Of a stretch of 64,000 bases of DNA, positions 2 through 51,813 are shown one piece after another (position 1 is the first letter of the stretch; every line of letters starts with the position of its first letter). Below the pieces are notes generated by a model. The model ran no database searches, was not told the origin of the DNA, and worked only from the letters and a program-made list of their open reading frames with translations. Both the position numbers and the translations under genes were made by a program. This DNA is from Escherichia coli (GTDB lineage Bacteria > Pseudomonadota > Gammaproteobacteria > Enterobacterales > Enterobacteriaceae). Location of the stretch: the NCBI RefSeq assembly GCF_009931435.1, contig NZ_CP043414.1; one strand, written 5' to 3'.

Positions 2-448
2 ACCCAGAGTTACTCCTGTTCGCTGGAACAAATCTCTGATTTCCGCCATGAAATGCGTTATCAGTTCTGGCACGATTTTCTTGGCAACGCGCCGAGCATT
101 CCGCCTGTGCTCTACGGCCTGAATGAAACGCGTCCGAGCCAGGATAAAGACGACGAGCAAGAGGTGTTCTATACCACCGCATTAGCCCAGGATCAGGCAG
201 ATGGCTATGTATTGACCGGGCATCCTGTGATGCTGCAAGGCGGTGAATATGTGATGTTTACCTATGAAGGTCTGGGAACAGGCGTGCAGGAGTTTATCCT
301 GACGGTATACGGAACGTGCATGCCAATGCTTAACCTGACGCGCCGTAAAGGTCAGGATATTGAGCGATACTACCCGGCAGAAGATGCCAAAGCGGGAGAT
401 CGCCCAATTAATCTGCGCTGTGAACTGCTGATTCCGATCCGTCGTTAA
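2..448 (+). CDS. rob: Rob, AraC/XylS-family regulator; C-terminal part only, 5' end outside window
   Basis: Frame is open from the window edge to the stop at 446-448; C-terminal peptide ...GDRPINLRCELLIPIRR and position next to gpmB fit Rob as I recall it. Confidence 0.7.
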   Translation, partial: TQSYSCSLEQISDFRHEMRYQFWHDFLGNAPSIPPVLYGLNETRPSQDKDDEQEVFYTTALAQDQADGYVLTGHPVMLQGGEYVMFTYEGLGTGVQEFILTVYGTCMPMLNLTRRKGQDIERYYPAEDAKAGDRPINLRCELLIPIRR

Positions 449-1092
449 CGCTGCAGCTCATCTAATGCAGGGGCGTCCAGATGCGAGATGTCCCCTGCGG
501 TTTCAACCACCCAGCCAGACGCCAGCCACAAGCTTTCCTGATAATCCACGCGCGAAATAGAACAGTTACGCAGACGTAAGCGACGCTCTGCCCATGCTGG
601 TAATCCGAGAATCGTACTCACCAGGCATCCCAGTGCAATACCGTGGCTCACCAGCAGCGGTCGGCTTCCCTGCGGTAATTCCCGACAAGATTCCAGTGCC
701 GCATTGACACGATCGCTGAGCTCCTGCATAGACTCGCCTTCAGGAATACGTCCGTCGACAGTGCCATTGACCAGTTGGCGACGCCAGTTTTCTTCTTCTT
801 CGGTGAGTGAATCGATATTTCTTGTTTCCAGTACACCCATATTTAATTCACGCAGGCGAGAATCAAAGATGATGTCACAGCCGCAGGCCTGGGCGATGAT
901 TTCCGCCGTGCGGCGGGTGCGCCCTAAATCGCTACTGATGATATGCGTAATGCCAAGCTCTTTGGCACGGGTCGCCACCTGCATCGCCTGTTGCTCACCT
1001 TTGGCAGTCAGCGGGCTGTCAGACTGGCCCTGAATACGTCGCTCGGCGTTCCACTGCGTTTCACCGTGGCGGACTAGGTATACCTGTAACAT
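445..1092 (-). CDS. gpmB: Phosphoglycerate mutase family protein GpmB (YtjC)
   Basis: 215-aa ORF starting MLQVYLVRHGETQWN with the histidine phosphatase RHGE motif; expected length and neighbours. Confidence 0.9.
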   Translation of the reverse strand: MLQVYLVRHGETQWNAERRIQGQSDSPLTAKGEQQAMQVATRAKELGITHIISSDLGRTRRTAEIIAQACGCDIIFDSRLRELNMGVLETRNIDSLTEEEENWRRQLVNGTVDGRIPEGESMQELSDRVNAALESCRELPQGSRPLLVSHGIALGCLVSTILGLPAWAERRLRLRNCSISRVDYQESLWLASGWVVETAGDISHLDAPALDELQR

Positions 1093-1131
1093 GCTTTTTT
1101 TCCGTATACTGCTGTAACGTTAATTTTCTGA

Positions 1132-1994
<863 letters not shown>

Positions 1995-2026
1995 TTAGCG
2001 GGGGAAGCAAAATGCCTCCCCCGGTT

Positions 2027-2044
2027 GTACTCGCTAAAGAGTAC
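2027..2044. promoter_or_regulatory. trpR operator (TrpR autoregulation site)
   Basis: GTACTCGCTAAAGAGTAC palindrome 48-65 bp upstream of the trpR start, resembling the trp operator half-sites GTACT/AGTAC. Confidence 0.5.
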
Positions 2045-2068
2045 GATAGCATATCATAAACGTGCGGA

Positions 2069-4006
2069 TCAGTAACGACGTCCCCATTCCGTGGCGCTCA
2101 TCAACGTTGGTTTATCCCCCATGAAATAGCGGTAGTAAGCGTCATAAGCCAGCACGTTCTTCACATAACCGCGCGTCTCAGAGAACGGAATACTCTCGAC
2201 AAATGCCACTGCGTCGATACGACCAGCGCTGTTGCCAAGCCAGGTGCGCACTCGTCCAGGTCCGGCGTTATAAGCTGCTGAGGCGAAAATACGGTTATTG
2301 CCAAACTGCTGATAAACATATTGCAGGTAACTGGTGCCGATGTTGATGTTCGTTTCCGGATCCAGCAATTGCCCAGGGCTGCTGTAGCCAGGAATAGAGA
2401 ACATCTTCACCGTATGGGTCGCCGTACCAGGCATAATCTGCATCAGCCCGCTGGCCCCTACCGGTGACTTCACTTTCGGATTCCAGGCGCTCTCCTGACG
2501 GGCAATCGCCATCGCATAGCTTTGCGGGATCTCCTTACCGCTGGTGTAACGTTTGAAAAAATCGTTGTAGGCCAGCGGGAATCGTTCTTCCAGATGATCC
2601 CACAACTTCCCGGCGATCGTCGCCTGAACGCTGAGATCCCACCATTGGTTGTTGAAAGCATACCGTGCCAGCTGTGCCTGCTCTGTTTTTGACTTGCTCT
2701 TCACCAGATTGGCCCACTCGCTACGCGCGGTGTTATCGAGATTCCAGTACATCAACTCGCGCACGCGCGCCATCTCCGGCCCCTGAGTCAGGGTGCTGTC
2801 AACATTCTGCGGCGCTTTATCAATCTTCAGCTCATACTCTTCGCCGATGCGCTGTGCAGCAACCATCGGGTAGAAACCACGCTGTTGCATGAGTTGATGC
2901 AGAATCTCTTTCGCTTCAGCTTCACGTCCGCGTTCCAGCAATAAATCGGCCTGCCAGTAACGCCATTCATCTTTCTCTTTCGCTTCCATCGGCAAACGCG
3001 CCAGCCAGGTATTCAGGCCACGCCGATCGCCAGTACCAAGCGCCATCCGCACTCGGCGTTCAATCAACGAGGTGGATTGCGAGCGCATAATGGCGTCATC
3101 GCGCCATTTCGCCTGCTCGTCGGTGACATCGTTGCCCATCAAACGCCAGGCGACGATATCGCGCAGTTCCTGAATCTGATCTTCATTAAGCTGCTGTGCC
3201 TGAGCAAGCGATGGAATCATCAGCCGTGCATTTTCAGCATCCTGCCGTGCCACGCTGGCAAACGCCACCGCCGCCATTTGACGGGTAAAATCGGTCGCAC
3301 CGGTTGTACGCGCGAAGGTCAGTACCGTATTAGGGTTGTTCGCCAGAGAAATAATCGCCGAGGCGATAGTCTGGTAATCAGCAGGCATCTGACCTGCCAG
3401 CACTGTCACCAGACCCGTGTTACCCGCTTTCATCGCCAGACGGATACGCTCTAAATACGCCAGCGGATCTTGTTTGCCTGACGCACGCCAGACACTAAAT
3501 AACTTGTCACAAGCGTTAGGCTGGCTCTTGCCGGTTAGCCACAACTCTTTCGCCCCTTGCCAGGCTTCTTCACTCTGCCCGGTGTTCCATTTCGCATAGT
3601 AGTAATTACATTGCGCTTCGGTAGTTCCGGGCTTTTCCGGGCTAAAGGCTAACAAGCCACGCCAGTCTTCACGCCGCGCCAGTTCATTGACGAAACGAGA
3701 TTGCAGCGTGCGAGCGGGAGGAAGCGTGGGGTTAGCGCGAACAAAGTTAGTGACCGTCACCGCCGGTTGATTCATCAGGTCATCGGTGATCTGACGGTAT
3801 TCCAGGTAGGGATAAAGCGGATAATCTTTCAGTCCAGGCATCATTTGTTCGACCACATCCATTTGTCGATTATCCCAGGCCTGCTTAATTTGCGCGTAAC
3901 GGCTACGCTGCTCATCCAGTGAGTCGGCTCGCGCCACGCTGCTGACCGTCAGCAGACAGACACCGACAGCCAACAGCCGCCAGGTAACGTGTTTGGCTTT
4001 TTCCAC
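2069..4006 (-). CDS. slt: Soluble lytic murein transglycosylase Slt70
   Basis: 645-aa ORF with an N-terminal signal peptide and a C-terminal lysozyme-like domain (...ESAWNPKVKSPVGASGLMQIMPGTA...). Confidence 0.95.
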   Translation of the reverse strand: MEKAKHVTWRLLAVGVCLLTVSSVARADSLDEQRSRYAQIKQAWDNRQMDVVEQMMPGLKDYPLYPYLEYRQITDDLMNQPAVTVTNFVRANPTLPPARTLQSRFVNELARREDWRGLLAFSPEKPGTTEAQCNYYYAKWNTGQSEEAWQGAKELWLTGKSQPNACDKLFSVWRASGKQDPLAYLERIRLAMKAGNTGLVTVLAGQMPADYQTIASAIISLANNPNTVLTFARTTGATDFTRQMAAVAFASVARQDAENARLMIPSLAQAQQLNEDQIQELRDIVAWRLMGNDVTDEQAKWRDDAIMRSQSTSLIERRVRMALGTGDRRGLNTWLARLPMEAKEKDEWRYWQADLLLERGREAEAKEILHQLMQQRGFYPMVAAQRIGEEYELKIDKAPQNVDSTLTQGPEMARVRELMYWNLDNTARSEWANLVKSKSKTEQAQLARYAFNNQWWDLSVQATIAGKLWDHLEERFPLAYNDFFKRYTSGKEIPQSYAMAIARQESAWNPKVKSPVGASGLMQIMPGTATHTVKMFSIPGYSSPGQLLDPETNINIGTSYLQYVYQQFGNNRIFASAAYNAGPGRVRTWLGNSAGRIDAVAFVESIPFSETRGYVKNVLAYDAYYRYFMGDKPTLMSATEWGRRY

Positions 4007-38082: not shown

Positions 38083-38997
38083 ATGAGTCGCTCACAAAAT
38101 TTACGCCACAATGTGATTAACCAGGTCATTGATGATATGGCACGAGGTCATATCCCTTCGCCACTTCCATCGCAAAGTGCGCTGGCAGAAATGTACAACA
38201 TCAGCCGCACCACAGTGCGTCATATTCTCAGCCACTTACGCGAATGCGGCGTCTTGACGCAGGTTGGAAACGACTATGTTATTGCGCGTAAACCTGACCA
38301 TGATGACGGTTTCGCCTGTACTACCGCTTCAATGAGTGAACAAAACAAAGTGTTTGAGCAGGCTTTTTTTACGATGATAAACCAGCGCCAGTTACGCCCA
38401 GGAGAAACTTTTTCTGAACTGCAACTGGCTCGGGCCGCGGGTGTCAGCCCGGTTGTAGTAAGAGAATATCTTTTAAAATTCGGTCGTTATAATCTTATTC
38501 AGAGCGAAAAGCGCGGCCAGTGGAGCATGAAGCAATTCGATCAATCCTACGCCGAGCAGCTGTTTGAGCTACGCGAAATGCTCGAAACTCATTCACTTCA
38601 GCACTTTCTCAACCTGCCTGATCATGATCCCCGCTGGCTGCAGGCGAAAACCATGCTCGAACGTCATCGACTACTGCGTGACAACATCGGCAATAGCTTT
38701 CGCATGTTCTCGCAACTTGACAGAGATTTTCACTCCTTACTGCTTTCAGCTGCCGATAATATCTTTTTTGATCAATCGCTTGAGATCATCTCAGTCATCT
38801 TTCATTTTCACTATCAATGGGACGAAAGCGATCTTAAACAGCGCAATATCATTGCCGTCGATGAGCATATGACCATTCTCAGCGCTCTGATTTGCCGCAG
38901 TGACCTGGATGCCACCCTTGCGCTCCGTAACCATTTGAATTCAGCTAAACAATCAATGATTCGATCCATTAATGAGAACACGCGTTATGCTCATTAA
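38083..38997 (+). CDS. lgoR: GntR-family regulator LgoR (YjjM)
   Basis: 304-aa ORF MSRSQNLRHNVINQVIDDMARGHIPSPLPSQSALAEMYNISRTTVRHIL... with an N-terminal GntR HTH. Confidence 0.85.
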   Translation: MSRSQNLRHNVINQVIDDMARGHIPSPLPSQSALAEMYNISRTTVRHILSHLRECGVLTQVGNDYVIARKPDHDDGFACTTASMSEQNKVFEQAFFTMINQRQLRPGETFSELQLARAAGVSPVVVREYLLKFGRYNLIQSEKRGQWSMKQFDQSYAEQLFELREMLETHSLQHFLNLPDHDPRWLQAKTMLERHRLLRDNIGNSFRMFSQLDRDFHSLLLSAADNIFFDQSLEIISVIFHFHYQWDESDLKQRNIIAVDEHMTILSALICRSDLDATLALRNHLNSAKQSMIRSINENTRYAH

Positions 38998-39211
38998 GTA
39001 CGGATTAAAAACAGCAAACTATTAGCGGGTGCACGGTTTTATCAAAAGATAAATACCGGAAAATTCCCGCTTACCTATGCTCACAATCAGTCGACTAAAA
39101 ATGTTTTTGTGAGCGGTAGTAAAGTCCTAAAACTTTCACCTGCCGTTAATGTCAACCTTGCGTAATGCACAATTACGTAAACAATTAAAATTATAAATAC
39201 AGGAGTCCGGC

Positions 39212-40573
39212 GTGGAAAAAGAAAATATCACCCTCGATCCGCGTTCTTCATTTACTCCATCTTCGTCGGCAGATATTCCCGTGCCACCAGATGGATTAGT
39301 TCAACGCAGTACCCGAATTAAACGCATTCAAACCACCGCCATGTTGTTATTATTTTTTGCGGCGGTAATCAATTATCTCGACCGCAGTTCACTGTCGGTA
39401 GCAAATTTAACGATTCGTGAAGAATTGGGATTAAGTGCCACCGAAATCGGCGCTTTGCTCTCCGTGTTTTCACTCGCTTACGGGATTGCGCAACTTCCTT
39501 GCGGCCCACTATTGGATCGTAAAGGCCCGCGCCTGATGCTGGGACTGGGGATGTTCTTCTGGTCACTGTTCCAGGCAATGTCTGGCATGGTGCACAGCTT
39601 TACGCAGTTCGTGTTGGTGCGTATCGGTATGGGAATTGGTGAAGCGCCGATGAACCCATGCGGTGTAAAAGTCATTAACGACTGGTTCAACATCAAAGAG
39701 CGCGGACGCCCGATGGGCTTCTTCAACGCAGCTTCTACCATTGGCGTTGCCGTAAGCCCACCGATTCTGGCGGCGATGATGCTGGTGATGGGCTGGCGCG
39801 GGATGTTTATTACCATTGGTGTACTGGGGATTTTTCTCGCCATTGGCTGGTATATGCTCTATCGCAACCGCGAGCACGTAGAACTGACTGCCGTTGAACA
39901 AGCTTATCTCAATGCAGGTAGCGTCAATGCCCGCCGTGATCCGCTCAGTTTTGCCGAATGGCGCAGCCTGTTCCGTAACCGCACAATGTGGGGAATGATG
40001 CTCGGATTCAGTGGCATCAACTACACTGCGTGGCTGTATCTGGCCTGGCTTCCTGGTTACCTGCAAACAGCCTATAACCTGGATTTAAAAAGCACAGGAT
40101 TGATGGCGGCTATCCCTTTCCTGTTTGGGGCTGCCGGGATGCTGGTCAACGGTTACGTTACCGACTGGCTGGTCAAAGGGGGAATGGCTCCGATTAAAAG
40201 CCGTAAGATCTGCATTATTGCCGGGATGTTCTGTTCTGCCGCCTTTACGCTGGTCGTACCGCAAGCGACAACATCCATGACAGCGGTTCTGCTGATTGGC
40301 ATGGCACTGTTCTGCATTCACTTTGCCGGAACATCCTGCTGGGGATTGATCCACGTCGCTGTCGCTTCTCGCATGACTGCATCGGTGGGCAGTATCCAGA
40401 ACTTTGCCAGCTTCATCTGCGCTTCTTTCGCGCCGATCATTACTGGTTTTATTGTCGATACCACCCACTCATTCCGTCTGGCGCTAATCATCTGCGGTTG
40501 CGTCACCGCGGCGGGTGCACTGGCATACATCTTCCTGGTTCGTCAGCCGATCAACGACCCACGTAAAGATTAA
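39212..40573 (+). CDS. lgoT: MFS transporter LgoT (YjjL), L-galactonate transporter
   Basis: 453 aa, multi-pass MFS protein. Confidence 0.85.
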   Translation: MEKENITLDPRSSFTPSSSADIPVPPDGLVQRSTRIKRIQTTAMLLLFFAAVINYLDRSSLSVANLTIREELGLSATEIGALLSVFSLAYGIAQLPCGPLLDRKGPRLMLGLGMFFWSLFQAMSGMVHSFTQFVLVRIGMGIGEAPMNPCGVKVINDWFNIKERGRPMGFFNAASTIGVAVSPPILAAMMLVMGWRGMFITIGVLGIFLAIGWYMLYRNREHVELTAVEQAYLNAGSVNARRDPLSFAEWRSLFRNRTMWGMMLGFSGINYTAWLYLAWLPGYLQTAYNLDLKSTGLMAAIPFLFGAAGMLVNGYVTDWLVKGGMAPIKSRKICIIAGMFCSAAFTLVVPQATTSMTAVLLIGMALFCIHFAGTSCWGLIHVAVASRMTASVGSIQNFASFICASFAPIITGFIVDTTHSFRLALIICGCVTAAGALAYIFLVRQPINDPRKD

Positions 40574-40580
40574 TTTCCCT

Positions 40581-40614
40581 ATGCCCGATAACATTTTGCT
40601 TATCGGGCATTTTT
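40581..40614. terminator. Bidirectional rho-independent terminator between lgoT and tsr
   Basis: ATGCCCGATAA-CATTTTGC-TTATCGGGCAT hairpin followed by TTTT. Confidence 0.6.
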
Positions 40615-40621
40615 ATGGCGA

Positions 40622-42286
40622 TTAAAACGTTTCCCAGTTCTCTCCGCTATCTGCCACTGCCACTTTGCGCGGCGCAGATGGCGTCACAGTTTTTACTACT
40701 GCCGATGCTTCGCGCTGGCGTTGCTGCTCTTGCTGAATCCGGAACACTGCCACAGCTTCGGTCAGGCGACTGGCCTGCTCCTCCAGCGCGGCGGCGGCAG
40801 CGGCAGATTCTTCCACCAGCGCAGCGTTCTGTTGGGTTACCCGGTCCATCTCAGCAACCGCTAAGCCAACCTGATCGATACCACGGCTCTGCTCATCAGA
40901 AGCAGAAGCAATTTCGCCCATAATGTCCGTCACGCGGGTCACAGCGCTGACAATCTCCGCCATTGTTTCCCCGGCGCTTTCGACCAGCGTAGAGCCAACA
41001 TCCACTTTCCCCACCGAGTCTTCAATCAGGCTTTTAATTTCGCGAGCCGCCTGGGCGCTACGCTGGGCCAGATTACGCACTTCTCCCGCAACCACCGCAA
41101 AACCGCGCCCTTGCTCACCCGCACGCGCTGCTTCAACCGCCGCGTTCAAAGCCAGAATATTGGTCTGGAAGGCAATGCCGTCAATTACGCTGATAATATC
41201 GGCGATTTTCTGCGAGCTGGTGGAGATATCGCGCATGGTCTGCACCACGTTATCCACCACTTTGCCGCCACGTTGCGCCGTTTCGGAAGCACTTAACGCC
41301 AGGTGGCTGGCCTGACGCGCATTTTCGGCGTTCTGCTTCACCGTTGCGGTCAGTTGCTCCATGCTGGCTGCCGTCTCTTCCAGCGAAGCGGCCTGTTGCT
41401 CGGTGCGCGAAGAGAGATCGTTATTGCCGGTGGCGATTTCGCTGGCACCGCTATAGATAGCATTGGCCCCGTTGCGCACATCACCGACGGTACGCATCAG
41501 CTCTCCCTGCATATGGCGCAAACTCTCTGCCAGTTGCCCCATCTCATTAGAACCATCCACCTCAATCGGTTTCACCAGATCGCCACCTGCAATATGACGA
41601 ATGCTGTCAATCAGGCGATTCATTGGCGCTACCAACGAGGCTTTAATACCGAACCAGACGGCGAAGATGACCGCCAGTACGACGATCATCACGCCCACCA
41701 GAATCCACATCGCCTGGCTGTAGGAGGCATTATTATCGCTGACGGCGATATCATAGAGCCGATCGTTTTGCTCCATGTAAGCCACATACTGCTTCTCGAA
41801 ACCGTCCTGATATCCCTGAGTCGGCTGATCAAAGAATTCGTTGATTTTGCCTGCACCTAACAGTTGGATCAGTTCCGCCAGCGCATTGTGATAAATATCG
41901 TAATTACGTTTGATCTCTGCCGCTGCGGCGGTGCTCTGACGCGGGTCACGCGGCAATGCTTCGTAATCCGCCCAGTTTTTTTCCGCCTGTTTCAGCGAAA
42001 TACTGGCACTCTGCATCAGCTCGGCAACGGTTGAACCGCTACCAATATTGTTCTGATCCATCATGTAGCGGATACCCGCGCGGTTGAGGGTGTTACGCGT
42101 CTGCAACAACGCGACCCAGCTGCCATTCAGCGTGGATTGCTGCTGGCGAATGGTTTGTAAAACAGTGAAATTTTCTTTGTCATTCTTTAAGGCATTAAAG
42201 AACAGACCGCCTGATGTCAGTTGTAAAAGGCCAAAAACGGCCAAAACCAGCAGTAAGCTGGTCACGATCTTGATACGTTTTAACAT
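40622..42286 (-). CDS. tsr: Serine chemoreceptor Tsr (methyl-accepting chemotaxis protein I)
   Basis: Start placed at [21 protein letters not shown]... (554 aa from this start); HAMP and methyl-accepting domains and the C-terminal NWETF pentapeptide. Confidence 0.95.
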
Positions 42287-42317
42287 GGTTTCTCTTTCCA
42301 CTAGACAGATACACTGG

Positions 42318-42344
42318 TTGTCGGCCTGGTGGTGGAAAACTTTA
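42318..42344 (-). promoter_or_regulatory. Candidate sigma-28 (FliA) promoter of tsr
   Basis: On the minus strand: TAAAGTTT, 11 nt, GCCGACAA, ending about 30 nt before the tsr ATG. Confidence 0.5.
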
Positions 42345-42425
42345 TGCTGTGGAAAAGCGTCGGCACTGCTTTTGTTGCAGCAAACTTGCGTTTTTTGTGA
42401 GGGTCACACTCTATAGCGGCAGTTT

Positions 42426-43331
42426 ATGGTACAAAGTATCAATCTTCTTCGAACCAGTGATACTCCTATGGCTTATAGCATCGATATCATCTCCTGCATT
42501 ACCGAACGATTTATGGCGTTAACAGCCACTGAAAAGCGTATCGCACAATTTATTCTTGATGACGTCTCTGCCGCAGTAGAGTTGCCAATTGCTGAGCTGG
42601 CACGGTTAACGCAAACCAGTCAGGCGTCGGTGACGCGTTTTGCCCGTGCACTGGGGTGCAAAGATGTCCGCGAGTTGAAAGTCAAACTGGCGCAGTCACT
42701 GGCTGTCGGGCAGCGGTTTATTCTCGATGTACCGGATCTTGACGGTGTTCAGGGGATCTACGAAGCGATTATTAGCGTGCTGGAAACGCATCGTCGTTCG
42801 CTGGATATGAATGCCATCAGCCAGGCTGTAAGCTGGTTAAGTCAGGCGCGGCAAATTCTTGCGTTAGGAACTGGCGGCGGTTCCACTATCTGTTCACAGG
42901 AGATTCAGTACCGTTTATTCCGTCTGGGGCTACCGGTGGTCAGTCAGAATGATGCCCTGATGATGAGAATGATGTGCTCGGCAGTGATGCCGCAGGATGT
43001 GGTGATTGTGCTGTCGCTGGGCGGTTATACACCGGAAATCATCGAAAGTGCGGCAATCGCCCGTCAGTATGGCGCGCGTGTTATTGCCATTACGCCAGCA
43101 CAAACACCGCTGGCGGAACAGGTGGATCTGGTATTGCCGTTACTGGTTCAGGAAAGTGATTACATCTTTAAGCCCACCCCTTCCCGCTACGCGATGTTAG
43201 CCATGGTCGATGTACTGGCAACAGAACTGGCAATGGCAAATAAAGCGCAGGCGAAAGATCGCCTGCGGCGGATAAAACTGGTGTTAGACAGCCACCGTGG
43301 GGGCGCTAACCGCCAGCCACTTGGCGATTAG
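42426..43331 (+). CDS. RpiR/MurR-family transcriptional regulator (HTH_6 + SIS domain)
   Basis: N-terminal HTH region (...LTATEKRIAQFILDDVSAAVELPIAELARLTQTSQASVTRFARALG...) and SIS motif ILALGTGGGSTICSQ; true start may be an internal Met. Confidence 0.7.
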   Translation: MVQSINLLRTSDTPMAYSIDIISCITERFMALTATEKRIAQFILDDVSAAVELPIAELARLTQTSQASVTRFARALGCKDVRELKVKLAQSLAVGQRFILDVPDLDGVQGIYEAIISVLETHRRSLDMNAISQAVSWLSQARQILALGTGGGSTICSQEIQYRLFRLGLPVVSQNDALMMRMMCSAVMPQDVVIVLSLGGYTPEIIESAAIARQYGARVIAITPAQTPLAEQVDLVLPLLVQESDYIFKPTPSRYAMLAMVDVLATELAMANKAQAKDRLRRIKLVLDSHRGGANRQPLGD

Positions 43332-43340
43332 CATTGTCGG

Positions 43341-44810
43341 TTATGCTTCTTCAGGTTTGGTGATCACGACACTCTGGTTTTCACGCTCATTGGTGATAAT
43401 AGCCAAAGCTTCTTCCCGGCTGACCTGACTTGCTGGCGTTACCAACGTCACCAGTACGCCAGCGACCAGGCTGCCCAGCACTGACGGAATACACGGGTTA
43501 CCCCAGTAAGCCAGCCAGTCGGCATTCATCAGCACCACAATTGACATCACCATACCGCTCACTAACGCCGCCAGCGCGCCCTGCCAGTTAAAGCGTAGCC
43601 AGAAGCGACCGAGAATCGAGCAGATAAACAGCCCGGACATCAGCATCGAAATCATTTTGGTAATGTAGCTGATGATGTCATTAGAGGTCAGAGCAAAGAC
43701 CAGCGCCAGGCCAATAACAAAGGTCAACATCCAGCGTGAGTAAGTAATGGCCTTGTCCTCCGGCGGCATTCTGCCGGTAATCATGGTGTAGACGTCGCGC
43801 ATCATAATCGCCACTGCCGCAATGGCATCAGAACTGGCAGAAGACATGGTGGCAGAAAGCCCGGCAATCAGCACCACCAGCCCAAGAATGGCAGGTAAGA
43901 AGCTGGTCGCGAACAAGAAGGCATAGTTACTGTTTTCCAGATTCGGGTTCATGGTGAACGCCGCCATGCCGATAATGGCAGGCAGAATCGAGAAGAACAG
44001 ATACAACACGCCAGTAATAACAAATGAACGCCGTACAGAGGGAACGTCTTTTCCCGAGTAAATACGCTGGCGATAAGATGGTGTGGCCAGTACGCCGACA
44101 CCAATAACCAGCGCCAGCGAAAGCGCAGGCAGCACGCCCATTTTATCAATCGCAAACAGGCTCATCGCTTTTGGGTCCATCGCCTGTTCAATCGCACTCC
44201 AGCCACCAACGTGAACAACGGCAAGAATAGCCATTAATATAAAGCCAAAGAACAGAATTAGGGCCTGAATAGTATCTGTCCACACTACCGCCGAATAACC
44301 GCCGATAATAACGTAAATCGCAAAAGCTAAGGCAATAATTAATTTTGCCACCGTAAGATCAATACCTGTCGCCCAGGCAAGATACATACTGCCACCTAAT
44401 ATATGCGCTCCCAGCCAGCCAATAGAGGCAATAAATATCATCAGGCCGACAATATTTTTAATTAAATGGCTGCCGCCAGTATAATAAGATATTTCTTCAC
44501 TCATGGTCATAAAACGTAATTTACGTACCGGTGCAAACAGCCACGCCACCAGTAATATACCTACGGCCCCACCGACGCCATAAAGCATTCCGGCCCAGCC
44601 ATTGCTGTAGCCAAAGCCCACTGCGCCCATACTGGAACCCGTGCCAACCATCGTGGCAACGGTTGACCCCAGCGTCAGAAACAGCGGCAGCGAACGCCCG
44701 CCCAACAGAAAATCTTCTCCGCTTTTCTGATTACGAGAAACAAACCAACCAAGCCAAATCATGGCGATGGCATAAATAATAAAGCCGACTAAAAAGATAT
44801 GACTGTTCAT
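43341..44810 (-). CDS. Sodium:solute symporter family (SSS) transporter
   Basis: 489 aa, about 13 predicted transmembrane segments; N-terminus ...FVSRNQKSGEDFLLGGRSLPLF... typical of PutP/PanF-type symporters. Confidence 0.7.
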   Translation of the reverse strand: MNSHIFLVGFIIYAIAMIWLGWFVSRNQKSGEDFLLGGRSLPLFLTLGSTVATMVGTGSSMGAVGFGYSNGWAGMLYGVGGAVGILLVAWLFAPVRKLRFMTMSEEISYYTGGSHLIKNIVGLMIFIASIGWLGAHILGGSMYLAWATGIDLTVAKLIIALAFAIYVIIGGYSAVVWTDTIQALILFFGFILMAILAVVHVGGWSAIEQAMDPKAMSLFAIDKMGVLPALSLALVIGVGVLATPSYRQRIYSGKDVPSVRRSFVITGVLYLFFSILPAIIGMAAFTMNPNLENSNYAFLFATSFLPAILGLVVLIAGLSATMSSASSDAIAAVAIMMRDVYTMITGRMPPEDKAITYSRWMLTFVIGLALVFALTSNDIISYITKMISMLMSGLFICSILGRFWLRFNWQGALAALVSGMVMSIVVLMNADWLAYWGNPCIPSVLGSLVAGVLVTLVTPASQVSREEALAIITNERENQSVVITKPEEA

Positions 44811-44912
44811 AATTCACATCCTGCCAGTAGAGAGAGAATAATGTAAGAGTTCCCGGAGTGCTGAATGTATTCAGCACTCAATTGCGGTCTGTTTTTTTAA
44901 TTCTTAAATTTA

Positions 44913-45308
44913 TTAGCGGGTCGCGTTATAACAGGTCACATCGACTTCGACTTTACAATCGACAACCAGATCAGCCACACAACAAATACGTGCAGGCGGA
45001 TTCTCGCCAAAAAATTCTCTGAATACTTTATTAAATGACTGGAAATAGCGGGCGTCGGTCAGGATCACTTTCACGTGAACCACATCCGCCAGGCTATAAC
45101 CGGCTTCAGTCATGATGTCGACACAGTTTTGGATCGCCAGTCGTGACTGTTCAACGATTCCGCCTTCTACCACTTCACCGTTTTTCATGGGTGTTTGCCC
45201 GGAGACGTACAGCCAGCCGCCCGCCTCAACCGCCCTGGCAAAAGGCAAATGCTGCCCGCCAGTGCCTGTTCCACCTTCCGTACCGTAACGTTTAATGCTC
45301 ATATTCAC
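44913..45308 (-). CDS. RidA/YjgF-family reactive-intermediate (enamine/imine) deaminase
   Basis: 131 aa with the YjgF fold signature (...AGYSLADVVHVKVILTDARYFQSFNKVFREFF...); starts 3 nt after the upstream deacylase stop. Confidence 0.7.
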   Translation of the reverse strand: MNMSIKRYGTEGGTGTGGQHLPFARAVEAGGWLYVSGQTPMKNGEVVEGGIVEQSRLAIQNCVDIMTEAGYSLADVVHVKVILTDARYFQSFNKVFREFFGENPPARICCVADLVVDCKVEVDVTCYNATR

Positions 45309-45311
45309 TCC

Positions 45312-46763
45312 TTAATGTGAGGTCTGCCGGCGCAGGAAGCGTCCCGCACGGCCTGTAATATGTTTATCGCGACCATAGCTCATAACGCCGTTCACCATCA
45401 CCGCCTCAATGCCATCTGCCGGGCGTTTGGGATCAGAAAAGCTGGCAACATCACGAATGGTTTGTGGATCGAACAACACCAGGTCCGCAAAATAACCGAC
45501 TTTCACCAGTCCACGCTGGGGCAGGCGAAAACGGCTGGCAGAAAGCCCGGTCATTTTGTGGATAGCCGTGGTCAGTGGGAATAAGCCTTCATCACGGCAA
45601 TAGTGGCCCAGCACACGAGGGAAGGCGCCCCATAAACGTGGATGCGGCATGGGATCATTGGGCAGGCCGTCAGAGCCAATCATACTGACCGGATAACTCA
45701 ACACTCGGCGGACGTCGCGCTCGTCCATGTTGTAATAGATAGCCCCGGCAGGCATTAGCAGCTTCGCGGCCTCCAGCATACTCATCTGCCAGTCGATGGC
45801 GATTTGCGCCAGTGTTTTCCCGGCCTGCTGCGGATGTGTTTGTGACCAGGTGATCATAATATCGAATTCGTCGGTGACTTGTTTGAGATCCAGCGTTGAA
45901 GAGCTGGCTGAGTAAGGGTAGACATCGCAGCCAATTTCCTGGTGTTGACGCATTTGGTCAAAAAAGGCCAACGTTTCTTTTGTCCGCCCCCAGTTTTTCG
46001 CCCCGGCGCATTTATGATGGGAAACCACGACAGGCACTTTGCCATGACGCCCAATACGAAACGCCTCATCCAGGGCATCGAGAATCGGTTCAAATTCAGA
46101 ACGCAGGTGGGTGGTATAAACGCCCTTCTCACCGGCTAATTCTTCCGCCAGCGCCATGACTTCTTCGGTAGTCGCCTGAAATGCTGTGGCATAGGCCAGC
46201 CCGGAACTTAACCCCAGCGCCCCCTGACTCAACGCCAGACGTAAGTCGGCGCGCATGGCGGCAATTTCATCCGCCGTCGCCGGGCGAAACAGGTCGTCCA
46301 TATGGTTATTACGCAGCGCCGTATGACCAATCAGCGTGCCAACGTTCAGTGACGGCCTGGCTGCTTCCACTGCCTGGGCATAGCTTTCAACGGTAGGATA
46401 AATAAAGTGCTCCGCTTCCCCCAACAGATTCATCGGGTCAGGAACTTCACCTTTCATTTTCGCCGACGCCGCACTGATCCCGCAGTTACCGACAATCACC
46501 GTAGTGATCCCCTGACTGATCTTTGGCAGATATTCCGGGATGCGAATAACGTTGATATCGTCATGGGTATGAACGTCGATAAACCCTGGTGCCAGCACCC
46601 GCCCTTCCCCGTCAATGACCTGCTGCGCCGTAGCGTTAAGCGCAGGGGCAATATCGACAATCCGATCACCTGTTATTGCCACGTCACCGCGAAATTCAGG
46701 GCCGCCGCTACCGTCGATAACGGTCACATTTTTGATTAACCAGTCAACCTGCATGTTCGTCAC
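45312..46763 (-). CDS. N-acyl-D-amino-acid deacylase (D-aminoacylase), amidohydrolase superfamily
   Basis: 483 aa; N-terminus VIDGSGGPEFRGDVAITGDRIVDIAP and metal-binding GFIDVHTHDD motif. Confidence 0.7.
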   Translation of the reverse strand: MTNMQVDWLIKNVTVIDGSGGPEFRGDVAITGDRIVDIAPALNATAQQVIDGEGRVLAPGFIDVHTHDDINVIRIPEYLPKISQGITTVIVGNCGISAASAKMKGEVPDPMNLLGEAEHFIYPTVESYAQAVEAARPSLNVGTLIGHTALRNNHMDDLFRPATADEIAAMRADLRLALSQGALGLSSGLAYATAFQATTEEVMALAEELAGEKGVYTTHLRSEFEPILDALDEAFRIGRHGKVPVVVSHHKCAGAKNWGRTKETLAFFDQMRQHQEIGCDVYPYSASSSTLDLKQVTDEFDIMITWSQTHPQQAGKTLAQIAIDWQMSMLEAAKLLMPAGAIYYNMDERDVRRVLSYPVSMIGSDGLPNDPMPHPRLWGAFPRVLGHYCRDEGLFPLTTAIHKMTGLSASRFRLPQRGLVKVGYFADLVLFDPQTIRDVASFSDPKRPADGIEAVMVNGVMSYGRDKHITGRAGRFLRRQTSH

Positions 46764-46954
46764 TCCATTTCTGCAATGGTGACAAGTTAACCATTTACAA
46801 GGACGAAAAACAGTGGAAAACTACGCAAAACCCAGATGATTTTCTGATACTTTTATTCATAAACTATAAGATAAATAAACTAAATATTTATATTTCATTT
46901 AGTTACAAATGATACTCACATCCGATACGGTGAAAAACTTAAAAGGTAAATGTT

Positions 46955-48175
46955 ATGAAATACCACTCAGAACCTCTGGTTCCCCATAAATCGGCCCTGA
47001 TGCAAATGCCCGCAAATCTCCTTGCCGAAGATGTCTGTTTACCTGCCGCGATCATTAAAAAGCAGGCCCTGGAGAACAACATTACGTGGATGCAGCGTTA
47101 TGCTGACGCGCGCGGCGTTTCGCTGGCACCGCACGGTAAAACCACCATGACGCCGTGGATTTTTCAGGCGCAGCAGGCAGCTGGTGCCTGGGCAATAGGT
47201 GTCGGTAGCGCATGGCAGGCTGGTGCGGCAATGGCGAGCGGTATTCAGCGAGTGCTGATGGTTAACCAGCTGGTCGGCAAGGCGAATATGCAGTTGATTG
47301 CCCAGTTGCAACGACATTACCCGACGGTCGATTTTATCTGCTGTATCGACAGCATTGAGAACGCCCGCGCTTTGTCTGCCTTTTTTGCCAGTCAGCAACA
47401 GACACTGAACGTGATGATTGAGTTGGGTGTCCCCGGCGGACGCTGTGGCTGCCGCTCAACGGATGCCGCACTGGCACTGGCTAAACAGGCGGCCCAATTA
47501 CCAGGGCTACGTCTGCGCGGGCTTGAGTTATATGAAGGTGTTTTACACGGTGACGATCCACAACCGCAGGTAGAAGCACTGCTGCGGGATGCCGCACAAC
47601 TGGCCTGTGATATGGCAAGTCTGGTTGATGGCGAATTTATTCTCACCGGAGCAGGCACGGTCTGGTATGACGTGGTGTGCAATATCTGGCTGGCGGCAGA
47701 AAAGCCTGATAACTGCCGCATTGTTATTCGCCCTGGCTGCTACATCACTCACGACACCGGGATCTACGACGCGGCACAACAACAGTTGCTTGCCCGCGAT
47801 CCTGTGGCCTGCGATCTGGCAGGCGATCTCACATCTGCGCTGGAACTGGTCGCCATGGTGCAATCGGTGCCGGAAGCTGATCGTGCGGTGGTAAATTTTG
47901 GTAAGCGTGATTGCGCCTTCGACGCCGGACTGCCGCAACCAGTCGCCCACTACCGCAACGGCAAATCACTGGCATTTGATCCACAGGCGATTCGCAGTAC
48001 AGGCATTATGGATCAGCACTGCATGTTGCAACTGTCAGCTAATAGCGACGTGCAAGTGGGGGATATTCTGGTGTTTGGCACATCGCATCCGTGCCTGACC
48101 TTCGACAAATGGAAAGCGTTGTTATTGACTGATGACGACTACAACGTACTGGCGGAATTAGACACTCTCTTCTAA
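46955..48175 (+). CDS. PLP-dependent alanine-racemase-fold enzyme (D-serine deaminase-like / D-threonine aldolase family)
   Basis: 406 aa; candidate PLP-lysine motif LAPHGKT near the N-terminus; divergent from the deacylase operon. Confidence 0.6.
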   Translation: MKYHSEPLVPHKSALMQMPANLLAEDVCLPAAIIKKQALENNITWMQRYADARGVSLAPHGKTTMTPWIFQAQQAAGAWAIGVGSAWQAGAAMASGIQRVLMVNQLVGKANMQLIAQLQRHYPTVDFICCIDSIENARALSAFFASQQQTLNVMIELGVPGGRCGCRSTDAALALAKQAAQLPGLRLRGLELYEGVLHGDDPQPQVEALLRDAAQLACDMASLVDGEFILTGAGTVWYDVVCNIWLAAEKPDNCRIVIRPGCYITHDTGIYDAAQQQLLARDPVACDLAGDLTSALELVAMVQSVPEADRAVVNFGKRDCAFDAGLPQPVAHYRNGKSLAFDPQAIRSTGIMDQHCMLQLSANSDVQVGDILVFGTSHPCLTFDKWKALLLTDDDYNVLAELDTLF

Positions 48176-48180
48176 GAATA

Positions 48181-48214
48181 CCCCTTCGGTTAATTATCGA
48201 AGGGGCATTTTTAT
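48181..48214 (+). terminator. Rho-independent terminator after the racemase-fold gene
   Basis: CCCCTTCG-GTTAATTAT-CGAAGGGG hairpin followed by CATTTTTATT. Confidence 0.65.
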
Positions 48215-48230
48215 TGTGATCTCAATCACA
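48215..48230. promoter_or_regulatory. CRP binding site upstream of btsT
   Basis: TGTGATCTCAATCACA, a perfect TGTGA-N6-TCACA. Confidence 0.55.
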
Positions 48231-48258
48231 TATCCACCCGACGAATAATTCTTGCCCA

Positions 48259-48286
48259 ACCGCTCACCGCCATTCCTGACCGCTTA
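48259..48286 (+). promoter_or_regulatory. Candidate BtsR (LytTR) direct-repeat binding site upstream of btsT
   Basis: ACCGCTCA, 12 nt, ACCGCTTA direct repeat, matching the ACC(G/A)CT(C/T)A motif I recall for the btsT (yjiY) promoter. Confidence 0.45.
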
Positions 48287-48442
48287 CGTCCCAAATATAA
48301 CCACTCAGTTATTTACCTTACTTTACGCGCGCGTAACTCTGGCAACATCACTGCAGGATAGCGGTCAATTTACCTCCTCAAACGCAACGCAAACCTAGAA
48401 CGGCTTCGGCCAACTATTAATCAATACATGCCAGGTTTTACT

Positions 48443-50593
48443 ATGGATACTAAAAAGATATTCAAGCACATACCCTGGGTGATTCTTGGAATCATCGGTG
48501 CATTCTGCCTCGCGGTAGTTGCATTACGTCGGGGGGAGCACGTCAGCGCCCTGTGGATCGTGGTCGCCTCTGTGTCGGTGTATCTGGTGGCTTATCGCTA
48601 CTACAGTCTGTACATCGCCCAGAAGGTGATGAAACTCGACCCCACGCGCGCGACGCCTGCGGTTATTAACAATGACGGTCTGAACTATGTTCCGACCAAC
48701 CGTTACGTGTTGTTTGGTCACCACTTCGCCGCTATCGCCGGTGCGGGTCCGCTGGTTGGTCCGGTTCTCGCCGCGCAGATGGGTTACCTGCCTGGCACAC
48801 TGTGGCTGCTGGCGGGGGTAGTGCTGGCCGGTGCGGTACAGGACTTTATGGTGCTGTTTATCTCTTCTCGCCGTAACGGCGCATCTCTCGGTGAGATGAT
48901 CAAAGAAGAGATGGGGCCAGTACCGGGGACTATCGCGCTGTTTGGCTGTTTCTTAATCATGATCATCATCCTCGCCGTTCTGGCGCTGATTGTGGTTAAA
49001 GCCCTGGCCGAAAGTCCGTGGGGGGTCTTCACCGTTTGCTCAACCGTACCGATTGCGCTGTTCATGGGTATCTACATGCGCTTTATCCGTCCGGGGCGTG
49101 TAGGTGAAGTCTCTGTTATTGGTATCGTGCTGCTGGTTGCCTCTATCTACTTCGGTGGCGTGATTGCTCACGATCCGTACTGGGGTCCGGCACTGACCTT
49201 TAAAGACACCACAATTACCTTCGCACTGATTGGCTATGCGTTTGTTTCCGCACTGCTGCCGGTGTGGCTGATCCTCGCACCGCGCGACTATCTGGCAACC
49301 TTCCTGAAAATCGGCGTTATCGTCGGCCTGGCGCTGGGTATCGTGGTGCTGAACCCGGAACTGAAAATGCCTGCGATGACCCAGTACATTGACGGTACTG
49401 GCCCGTTGTGGAAAGGCGCTCTGTTCCCGTTCCTGTTCATCACCATCGCCTGTGGTGCGGTATCTGGCTTCCACGCGCTGATCTCTTCCGGTACAACGCC
49501 GAAATTGCTGGCTAACGAAACCGACGCGCGTTTCATTGGCTACGGCGCAATGCTGATGGAGTCCTTCGTGGCGATTATGGCGCTGGTTGCTGCGTCCATC
49601 ATCGAACCGGGTCTTTACTTCGCGATGAATACCCCGCCTGCGGGCCTTGGCATCACCATGCCTAACCTGCATGAAATGGGTGGCGAGAACGCGCCGATCA
49701 TCATGGCGCAGCTGAAAGACGTTACCGCACACGCGGCAGCGACTGTCAGCTCCTGGGGCTTCGTGATTTCGCCAGAGCAGATCCTGCAAACCGCGAAAGA
49801 CATTGGTGAGCCTTCTGTCCTGAACCGTGCAGGTGGTGCGCCGACGCTGGCGGTAGGTATCGCTCACGTGTTCCACAAAGTGCTGCCGATGGCTGACATG
49901 GGCTTCTGGTATCACTTCGGTATTCTGTTCGAAGCCCTGTTCATCCTGACCGCGCTGGATGCGGGTACCCGTTCTGGCCGCTTTATGCTGCAAGACCTGC
50001 TGGGTAACTTCATCCCGTTCCTGAAAAAAACCGACTCTCTGGTTGCCGGCATCATCGGTACTGCGGGCTGTGTGGGTCTGTGGGGCTACCTGCTGTATCA
50101 GGGCGTGGTCGATCCGCTGGGCGGCGTTAAGAGCCTGTGGCCGCTGTTCGGTATCTCCAACCAGATGCTGGCAGCCGTAGCGCTGGTACTGGGCACCGTT
50201 GTGCTGATTAAGATGAAGCGCACCCAATACATCTGGGTGACTGTTGTTCCGGCTGTATGGCTGCTTATCTGCACCACCTGGGCGCTGGGCCTGAAACTGT
50301 TCAGCACCAACCCGCAGATGGAAGGCTTCTTCTACATGGCAAGCCAGTACAAAGAGAAGATTGCTAACGGTACTGACCTGACGGCACAGCAGATTGCCAA
50401 CATGAACCACATCGTTGTGAACAACTACACCAACGCGGGTCTGAGTATTCTGTTCCTGATTGTGGTGTACAGCATCATCTTCTACGGTTTCAAAACCTGG
50501 CTGAAGGTGCGTAACAGCGACAAACGTACTGACAAAGAAACTCCGTACGTTCCAATCCCGGAAGGCGGCGTGAAGATCTCTTCGCACCACTAA
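48443..50593 (+). CDS. btsT: Pyruvate/H+ symporter BtsT (YjiY), CstA family
   Basis: Start placed at MDTKKIFKHIPWVILGIIGAF... (716 aa). Confidence 0.9.
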   Translation: MDTKKIFKHIPWVILGIIGAFCLAVVALRRGEHVSALWIVVASVSVYLVAYRYYSLYIAQKVMKLDPTRATPAVINNDGLNYVPTNRYVLFGHHFAAIAGAGPLVGPVLAAQMGYLPGTLWLLAGVVLAGAVQDFMVLFISSRRNGASLGEMIKEEMGPVPGTIALFGCFLIMIIILAVLALIVVKALAESPWGVFTVCSTVPIALFMGIYMRFIRPGRVGEVSVIGIVLLVASIYFGGVIAHDPYWGPALTFKDTTITFALIGYAFVSALLPVWLILAPRDYLATFLKIGVIVGLALGIVVLNPELKMPAMTQYIDGTGPLWKGALFPFLFITIACGAVSGFHALISSGTTPKLLANETDARFIGYGAMLMESFVAIMALVAASIIEPGLYFAMNTPPAGLGITMPNLHEMGGENAPIIMAQLKDVTAHAAATVSSWGFVISPEQILQTAKDIGEPSVLNRAGGAPTLAVGIAHVFHKVLPMADMGFWYHFGILFEALFILTALDAGTRSGRFMLQDLLGNFIPFLKKTDSLVAGIIGTAGCVGLWGYLLYQGVVDPLGGVKSLWPLFGISNQMLAAVALVLGTVVLIKMKRTQYIWVTVVPAVWLLICTTWALGLKLFSTNPQMEGFFYMASQYKEKIANGTDLTAQQIANMNHIVVNNYTNAGLSILFLIVVYSIIFYGFKTWLKVRNSDKRTDKETPYVPIPEGGVKISSHH

Positions 50594-50642
50594 CCGTGTT
50601 TAGCCCCGCTTCGGCGGGGCTTTGTTCTTATCAGAGTGAACT

Positions 50643-50846
50643 ATGTTTGGTAACTTAGGACAGGCAAAAAAATATCTCGGCCAGGCGGCGAAGATGTTGA
50701 TTGGCATTCCAGACTACGACAACTACGTCGAGCATATGAAGACCAACCATCCCGACAAGCCGTACATGAGCTATGAAGAATTCTTCCGCGAACGCCAGAA
50801 CGCGCGCTACGGCGGCGATGGTAAAGGCGGTATGCGCTGTTGTTAA
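50643..50846 (+). CDS. yjiX: YjiX (DUF466 family small protein)
   Basis: 67 aa [67 protein letters not shown]. Confidence 0.8.
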
Positions 50847-50856
50847 TGGAGAGAGC

Positions 50857-51813
50857 ATGAACCCGATTGCAGTTACCCTACTCACCGGTTTTTTAGGCGC
50901 AGGCAAAACCACCCTGCTGCGCCATATTCTTAATGAACAGCACGGCTACAAGATTGCCGTGATTGAAAACGAATTCGGCGAAGTCTCCGTTGATGATCAA
51001 CTGATTGGCGACCGCGCCACGCAGATCAAAACGCTGACCAACGGCTGCATCTGTTGTTCGCGCTCCAACGAGCTGGAGGACGCGCTACTCGACCTGCTGG
51101 ATAATCTCGACAAGGGCAATATTCAGTTCGATCGTCTGGTCATTGAATGCACCGGCATGGCCGATCCCGGCCCGATTATTCAGACCTTTTTCTCCCATGA
51201 GATTTTATGCCAGCGTTACCTGCTGGACGGCGTGATTGCGCTGGTGGATGCGGTACATGCCGATGAGCAGATGAACCAGTTCACCATCGCCCAGTCACAG
51301 GTTGGCTACGCCGACCGCATTCTGCTGACCAAAACCGACGTCGCAGGCGAAGCAGAAAAACTGCGTGAACGCCTGGCACGCATCAACGCCCGCGCACCGG
51401 TCTACACCGTCACCCACGGCGACATCGATCTGGGCCTGCTGTTCAACACCAACGGTTTTATGCTGGAAGAAAACGTCGTCAGCACCAAACCGCGTTTCCA
51501 CTTTATCGCGGATAAACAAAACGATATTTCGTCGATTGTGGTAGAACTGGATTACCCGGTAGATATCAGCGAAGTTTCCCGCGTGATGGAAAACCTGCTG
51601 CTGGAGTCGGCGGATAAACTGCTGCGTTACAAAGGGATGCTATGGATTGACGGCGAACCAAATCGCCTGCTGTTCCAGGGCGTCCAGCGCCTCTACAGCG
51701 CCGACTGGGACCGCCCGTGGGGCGATGAAAAACCGCATAGCACGATGGTGTTTATCGGGATTCAGCTGCCGGAGGAAGAGATTCGGGCTGCGTTTGCGGG
51801 GTTGAGGAAGTAA
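50857..51813 (+). CDS. yjiA: COG0523/CobW-family metal-binding GTPase YjiA
   Basis: Start placed at MNPIAVTLLTGFLGAGKTTLLRHIL... (318 aa); GCICCS metal-binding motif. Confidence 0.9.
   Translation: MNPIAVTLLTGFLGAGKTTLLRHILNEQHGYKIAVIENEFGEVSVDDQLIGDRATQIKTLTNGCICCSRSNELEDALLDLLDNLDKGNIQFDRLVIECTGMADPGPIIQTFFSHEILCQRYLLDGVIALVDAVHADEQMNQFTIAQSQVGYADRILLTKTDVAGEAEKLRERLARINARAPVYTVTHGDIDLGLLFNTNGFMLEENVVSTKPRFHFIADKQNDISSIVVELDYPVDISEVSRVMENLLLESADKLLRYKGMLWIDGEPNRLLFQGVQRLYSADWDRPWGDEKPHSTMVFIGIQLPEEEIRAAFAGLRK

Follow-up and report, generated by a model that had tools for sequence, protein, structure and literature searches.

The btsT (yjiY) promoter of E. coli K-12 reportedly combines a site for the response regulator BtsR (YehT) with control by cAMP-CRP, as Kraxenberger et al. 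2012 and Behr et al. 2017 are said to have described. Kraxenberger et al. 2012 reportedly defined the YehT/BtsR site as two direct copies of ACC[G/A]CT[C/T]A, 13 bp apart. We use this definition of the BtsR motif together with a published oligonucleotide. The oligonucleotide, named 'yjiY YehT bs', served for SPR with K-12 sequence (PMC4847170). Sites of LytTR regulators consist of two repeats of 9-11 nt lying 11-13 nt apart (PMC4847170), and BtsR motifs are conserved across gamma-proteobacteria (PMC5552118). On the side of CRP, yjiY/btsT has been placed under cAMP-CRP control (PMC5431176), deletion of crp abolishes the activity of PbtsT (PMC7730263), and genomic SELEX located a CRP site in the K-12 yjiY<>tsr spacer (PMC3105977), where an RpoF-holoenzyme SELEX peak is also found (PMC5493296). 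The CRP and BtsR experiments cited here were all performed on K-12 DNA, and the allele described below differs from it at 2 of 16 positions in the CRP box, at 1 of 8 in the distal BtsR-type repeat (R1) and throughout the linker.

We analysed a 64,000-nt stretch of E. coli DNA (the window), in which the interval 48181-48286 covers the distal half of the btsT promoter and, before it, the terminator behind the final gene of a strain-specific islet. Performing BLAST against 5426 complete E. coli genomes, we identified the locus as btsT (yjiY) followed by yjiX and yjiA, and the annotation of K-12, BL21 and AR_0085 has tsr upstream and btsT/yjiX/yjiA downstream. The pyruvate/H+ symporter gene btsT (48443-50593, + strand) is an ORF of 716 aa that bears the btsT annotation in all matching E. 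coli genomes; its product is intact, full length and 100% identical to that of two Escherichia genomes. Along the + strand lie a stop codon, a hairpin, a CRP palindrome, a 28-nt linker, the repeats R1, R2 and R3, a leader of about 135 nt and the btsT ATG. This is the usual btsT control region, already characterised, with terminator, CRP site and BtsR repeats; both the system and the variable region that holds it are known. We consider it very probable, as a whole, that the btsT CRP/BtsR promoter stands here at the right edge of a variable slot, with the terminator of the islet gene before the promoter. Our data concern sequence features, conservation, junctions and population frequencies; the dependence on CRP and BtsR is that of the K-12 literature.

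The original prediction had recognised a terminator, a perfect CRP box and an R1-N12-R2 repeat as the btsT control region, complete beside the islet. All three elements exist beyond chance, at coordinates within 1-2 nt of those proposed, and the identity of the region is borne out with every functional box present. The deaminase ORF (406 aa), which is the last of the islet, stops with TAA at 48173-48175, and a hairpin begins 4-5 nt later, at 48180-48181. A terminator scan and RNA folding place the intrinsic terminator of this gene at 48180-48214 on the + strand. It is built of ACCCCTTCG, the loop GTTAATTAT and CGAAGGGG, followed by the T-run CATTTTTATT, so that a G+C-rich hairpin (10 pairs, 6 of them G-C, in the scan) and a T-run stand just past the stop codon. 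The hairpin folds at -21 kcal/mol compared with -7.9 ± 2.3 for shuffles (z = -5.7), and none of 200 shuffles was as good. By ending the co-directional deaminase transcript, the terminator would prevent read-through and leave btsT under its own control.

The CRP box TGTGATCTCAATCACA (48215-48230) matches the core at 10 of 10 positions and is the only perfect TGTGA-N6-TCACA in the 64 kb on either strand, where 0.08 would be expected by chance. With the btsT ATG 228 nt downstream, it occupies the position held in K-12 by TGTGATATGAATCACA, the only CRP-like site of the K-12 tsr-btsT spacer, which has a perfect core and the same spacing. The box stands upstream of a promoter reported to depend on CRP (PMC7730263, PMC5431176), and cAMP-CRP would be expected to bind this palindrome. 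The exact 16-mer recurs 44 bp before R1 in Klebsiella, Raoultella, Citrobacter, Pseudocitrobacter, Lelliottia and others. Thus, the CRP-R1 allele of the window is the widespread form, resembling the alleles of other genera. Between the box and R1 runs a 28-nt linker (48231-48258), fixed in length and free in sequence; its identity with the other cargo-type alleles of E. coli is 96-100%.

Three BtsR-type units follow on the + strand, namely the distal R1 (ACCGCTCA, 48259-48266), the central R2 (ACCGCTTA, 48279-48286) and the promoter-proximal R3 (ACCACTCA, 48300-48307), with spacers R1-N12-R2 and R2-N13-R3. Single ACCRCTYA octamers are unenriched in the window (9 found versus 6.25 expected), while pairs phased by a 12-13 nt spacer occur twice, overlapping as one triple, versus 0.002 pairs per shuffle. 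The BtsR repeat had been predicted as R1 with R2. These two units are a real phased pair, but they sit one unit upstream of the site reportedly published, R2-N13-R3, and R3, beyond the end of the predicted interval, had been left out. Only R2-N13-R3 fits the reported site, in K-12 and in the window alike, because of the 13-nt spacer, the G/A at position 4 and the T/C at position 7; R1-N12-R2 fits the octamer, but its spacer is 12 bp. We take the published BtsR/YehT site to correspond to R2 plus R3 (48279-48307). The reported motif and spacer, found in R2-N13-R3, the location in the btsT promoter and the conservation across species all point to a BtsR site. The oligonucleotide 'yjiY YehT bs' (PMC4847170) aligns with 48253-48311 of the window and covers R1, R2 and R3. 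BtsR, a LytTR-type response regulator activated by the pyruvate sensor BtsS, would bind the phased R1-R2-R3 array, whose period of 20-21 bp is about two helical turns.

We checked the conservation of this layout in btsT loci fetched from representatives of 80 Enterobacterales species, counting 81 upstream regions with the window and K-12 included. At least three units with at most one mismatch to ACCRCTYA are found at the 20-21 bp period in 79 of the 81 regions (78 of the 80 Enterobacterales species loci), and the R1 position holds a unit with at most one mismatch in 79/81 sequences. R2 is the most conserved unit across genera, and R1 is conserved as much as R3. Across the loci, the start of a CRP-like box precedes R1 by 43-45 bp, and the layout reads CRP, 44 bp, R1, 20 bp, R2, 20-21 bp, R3. 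Like the LytTR sites of AgrA, ComE, PlnC and YpdB, the array consists of direct repeats of 8-11 nt, 11-13 nt apart, before a weak promoter (PMC4847170). It appears to differ from the usual two-unit LytTR sites in having three units, and four phased units are present in 14/81 sequences.

Downstream of R3, an alignment of 19 sequences (15 genera and one mislabelled enterobacterial record) shows the conserved blocks ATTTACC, CTTTACGCGCG and TnTGnCAnnAT. We read the last block as a predicted extended -10, TGgCAACAT (48340-48348, + strand), with TG at 48340-48341 and the hexamer CAACAT at 48343-48348; T48340, G48341, C48343, A48344, A48347 and T48348 are invariant or nearly so in the alignment. From it we infer a +1 near 48355. 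With the predicted +1, the centres of R3, R2, R1 and CRP would lie at about -51.5, -72.5, -92.5 and -132.5, successively 20-21, 20-21 and 40 bp apart and roughly in helical phase. A CRP centre at about -132.5 would be farther out than is usual for simple class I activation. A simple scan of 48100-48460 gave no canonical sigma-70 -35/-10 pair on the + strand, as is expected for an activator-dependent promoter. In line with the K-12 literature, CRP and BtsR on these roughly phased sites would together activate a weak sigma-70 extended -10 promoter. Two other promoter candidates were rejected. A minus-strand sigma-70-like match from 48220 to 48193 is no more than chance would give (one match against 0.9 expected in 48100-48460). 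The sigma-54-like TGGCAACATCACTGCA (GG-N10-GC, 48340-48355) has TAC and not TGC in K-12 and the wrong spacing in other genera, and LytTR regulators are not sigma-54 activators; this match is probably due to chance.

On the left, the variable slot is flanked by tsr, the serine chemoreceptor gene (40622-42287, - strand), annotated in K-12, BL21 and AR_0085 and given here with the start codon of the K-12 annotation. Its sigma-28 (FliA) promoter lies at 42318-42344 on the - strand, with the -35 element TAAAGTTT at 42337-42344, an 11-nt spacer and the -10 element GCCGACAA at 42318-42325 (reverse complement); we take it to match the FliA consensus TAAAGTTT-N11-GCCGATAA. The left breakpoint, 42346/42347, is identical for K-12, BL21 and the window and falls 2 nt beyond the tsr -35 element. 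From there the five-gene catabolic islet, absent from K-12 and with genes named by RefSeq annotation (AR_0085, 21F61) and NCBIfam matches, extends over 42347-48179. It encodes an RpiR/MurR-type regulator (42468-43331, +), a sodium:solute symporter (43341-44810, -), RidA (44913-45302, -), a member of the N-acyl-D-amino-acid deacylase family (45312-46754, -) and the 'amino acid deaminase' (46955-48175, +), a gene content that suggests catabolism of N-acyl-D-amino acids or D-amino acids. The islet is present in 194 of the 5426 complete E. coli genomes. Searching 42200-48600 with Rfam gave no RNA family. The 120 nt that separate the rpiR-like gene from the tsr promoter contain the small palindromes TGTGAGGGTCACA (42396-42408) and TTGCAGCAA (42375-42383), which could be operator sites for the RpiR/MurR-type regulator of the islet.

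BLAST aligns K-12 with the window at 38472-42346, the tsr side (97.3% identity), and again at 48260-51813, and 5913 bp of the window replace 135 bp of K-12. We then have two btsT promoters with the same gene and the same element order, both with a perfect CRP core 44 bp before R1, and compared them by segment, ungapped and in register. Identity is 7/35 in the terminator region (48180-48214), 14/16 in the CRP box (48215-48230), where the spacer bases are TCTCAA in the window versus TATGAA in K-12, and 8/28 in the linker, which is chance level and makes the two linkers unrelated. R1 (48259-48266) is 7/8 identical, K-12 having GCCGCTCA, and the R1-R2 spacer 6/12. High identity resumes only at about 48275-48279; R2 and R3 are each identical at 8/8 positions, the R2-R3 spacer at 10/13, and the core promoter with the 5'-UTR (48308-48442) at 134/135. 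The terminator, the CRP box, the linker, R1 and the R1-R2 spacer all fall within DNA unlike that of K-12, whose own 135-bp allele retains only the CRP box and R1, both in register. The surroundings differ as well, since the window has an upstream terminator and a co-directional gene, whereas in K-12 the divergent tsr promoter stands at a distance of just 135 bp.

In a sensitive BLAST with the K-12 135-bp segment as query, and with the islet, the hpa cluster and 80 further loci as targets, the only matches were to E. albertii and to the CRP box. A 7-nt match (ACACTCT) between this segment and the end of the deaminase gene was considered as a homology remnant and rejected as chance by BLAST. In the 5426 complete genomes, the K-12-type allele was counted 2753 times and the cargo-type allele (48197-48262) 2246 times. 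Because the stretch from the terminator to the R1-R2 spacer is not K-12-like, the module is the second of two common E. coli alleles rather than a K-12-like promoter that an insertion had spared.

The original prediction had drawn the right boundary at 48176-48215, upstream of the regulatory module, and had proposed alignment with K-12 as the check. That alignment places the junction inside the module: relative to K-12, the boundary falls between R1 and R2 (48260-48279). The predicted boundary does stand relative to E. coli with other cargos, the hpa or hydroxyproline clusters, for which the islet-specific DNA ends within 48180-48216. Homology with hpa-type E. coli begins at 48197 in BLAST, inside the terminator, with the stem shared from about 48181, and homology with hydroxyproline-cluster E. 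coli (strain E66) starts one base into the CRP box, at 48216.

The slot is bounded by the tsr sigma-28 -35 element on the left and by the btsT CRP box on the right, and in E. coli it holds the 135 bp of K-12, an hpa cluster, the five-gene islet, a hydroxyproline cluster or a stack of two. Most genomes with the promoter allele of the window lack the islet; the alternatives joined to the same CRP allele are hpa, the hydroxyproline cluster, the islet followed by the hydroxyproline cluster, and a deletion scar. Strain 99-3165 has the islet, then the hydroxyproline cluster, then btsT, while E66 has the hydroxyproline-catabolism cluster alone in the slot. This cluster (L087:19888-29918 in E. coli 99-3165, L085:1-8851 in E66) comprises nine genes, with a 4-hydroxyproline epimerase, oxidoreductases, a DapA-like protein, an aldehyde dehydrogenase, an APC permease, an AraC regulator and an Ldh-family protein, and a REP-like sequence lies at its end, just before the CRP box. 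In Escherichia sp. MOD1-EC7003 (L004:6531-6728), a 39-aa rpiR-like fragment abuts the last 37 codons of hpaC. This fusion looks like the scar of a deletion in an ancestor that had the hpa cluster as well as the islet; no tsr match turned up in the 7 kb retrieved upstream for this strain. The simplest mechanism would be a swap of cargo through homologous recombination in tsr and btsT, the flanks that are conserved. Selection would keep both promoters, which would explain why the breakpoints coincide exactly with the promoter edges.

The junction data also bear on other histories of the locus. In one of these, the islet was inserted into a K-12-like tsr-btsT spacer upstream of an untouched module, with the K-12/island junction at 48176-48215. 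Cargo-specific DNA does end in this interval relative to hpa- and hydroxyproline-type E. coli, and all functional boxes are present. We nevertheless hold this history to be improbable, as the match to K-12 picks up again at 48260 in BLAST and, judged by identity, at about 48279, and the 135-bp segment of K-12 is dissimilar except for the CRP box and R1, with E. albertii as its only relative among the fetched loci. Moreover, the left breakpoint 42346/42347 common to K-12, BL21 and the window implies a replaceable segment. It is less probable still, and in our estimate very unlikely, that the CRP box and R1 came with the islet from a foreign donor, which would move the right end of the islet to about 48278. 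Such a donor is suggested by the locus L065, which has the same islet directly upstream of btsT with an identical CRP 16-mer, and by K-12 homology that starts only at R1/R2. However, the linker of L065 is unlike that of the window, and 48197-48262 is 97-100% identical to about 2,000 islet-less E. coli with hpa or other cargo. Being common to islet-less genomes and unlike L065, this segment travels with the btsT side and not with the islet.

We give the least credence, next to none, to a mobile genomic island that entered by site-specific recombination or transposition at an att site by the btsT promoter, even if the islet varies in presence among strains and its junction positions are sharp. 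The original prediction had proposed looking for short direct repeats at both islet ends; we found no direct or inverted terminal repeats of at least 8 nt there. Nor is there an integrase or transposase among the five annotated islet products, and the G+C content of the islet (45-57%) is similar to the flanks, with no clear compositional deviation. Unrelated cargos use one and the same pair of breakpoints, each of which coincides with a promoter element. The replaceable slot between the tsr and btsT promoters remains our preferred reading, and the functional side of the original prediction, that btsT control is left intact, seems sound to us: to judge from its sequence, btsT regulation would almost certainly be intact in islet carriers.

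A close relative of the junction in the window is the hpa-btsT junction of E. coli B, C and W, which shares its CRP-linker-R1 allele (from 48197 on, identity within E. coli is 96-100%). An hpa cluster-btsT junction is also found in Klebsiella, Raoultella and Pseudocitrobacter. The stem arms and T-run of the terminator are common to the window and the hpaC terminator of BL21-type E. coli, whereas the loop differs, and the cargo is 11 kb of hpa genes as against the 5.8-kb five-gene islet. The gene hpaC stands directly upstream of btsT in many genera, and the same islet does so in L065 and lies about 2 kb away in Pluralibacter gergoviae (L062). Since the same neighbours recur upstream of btsT in other genera, these adjacencies would be old or repeatedly exchanged.

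BL21 differs from the window also by a 123-bp ERIC-like insertion in the btsT 5'-UTR, just upstream of the ribosome-binding site (L002:4228-4350, also in L005, L006 and L017). The insertion occurs in several other Escherichia and Citrobacter genomes and is absent at 48424-48443 of the window. Its GTGAATCCCCGGGAGCTTACAACAGTAAGTGACAGGGGTGAACG presumably matches the ERIC/IRU repeat consensus. Many E. coli BLAST matches show a two-piece alignment like that of insertion carriers. In E. albertii (L006:6163-6499), which has the K-12-type promoter allele, only short broken tsr-like fragments lie between lgoT and btsT; this suggests a remnant of a tsr pseudogene. The locus L065 (CACSKA010000015.1) is titled 'Chryseobacterium sp. 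18061', and its BtsT is enterobacterial (93% identity); it is probably a mislabelled or contaminated assembly.

The main value of this analysis is a correction of where the strain-specific DNA truly starts and ends. With K-12 as the sole reference, the islet boundary would be misplaced by 45-100 nt, to a position inside the promoter. The two natural alleles also provide a ready-made footprint, in which the CRP box and the third BtsR-type repeat, R1, stand out as constrained, and the one modest novelty is that R1 would be singled out by the natural replacement of alleles together with conservation across genera. The linker sequence between the CRP box and R1 is otherwise randomised between the two deeply diverged E. 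coli alleles, while R1 and the CRP box keep their exact register across both alleles and the Enterobacterales. On these grounds, we put forward tentatively, as a possibility we take seriously without favouring it, that the BtsR operator is really a three-unit array (R1-R2-R3), its alleles perhaps having different pyruvate/cAMP thresholds for btsT. If so, ACCGCTCA versus GCCGCTCA at R1, together with the different CRP spacers, would separate the responses of cargo-carrying strains from those of K-12-like strains, and a role of R1 could refine the model of BtsR binding.
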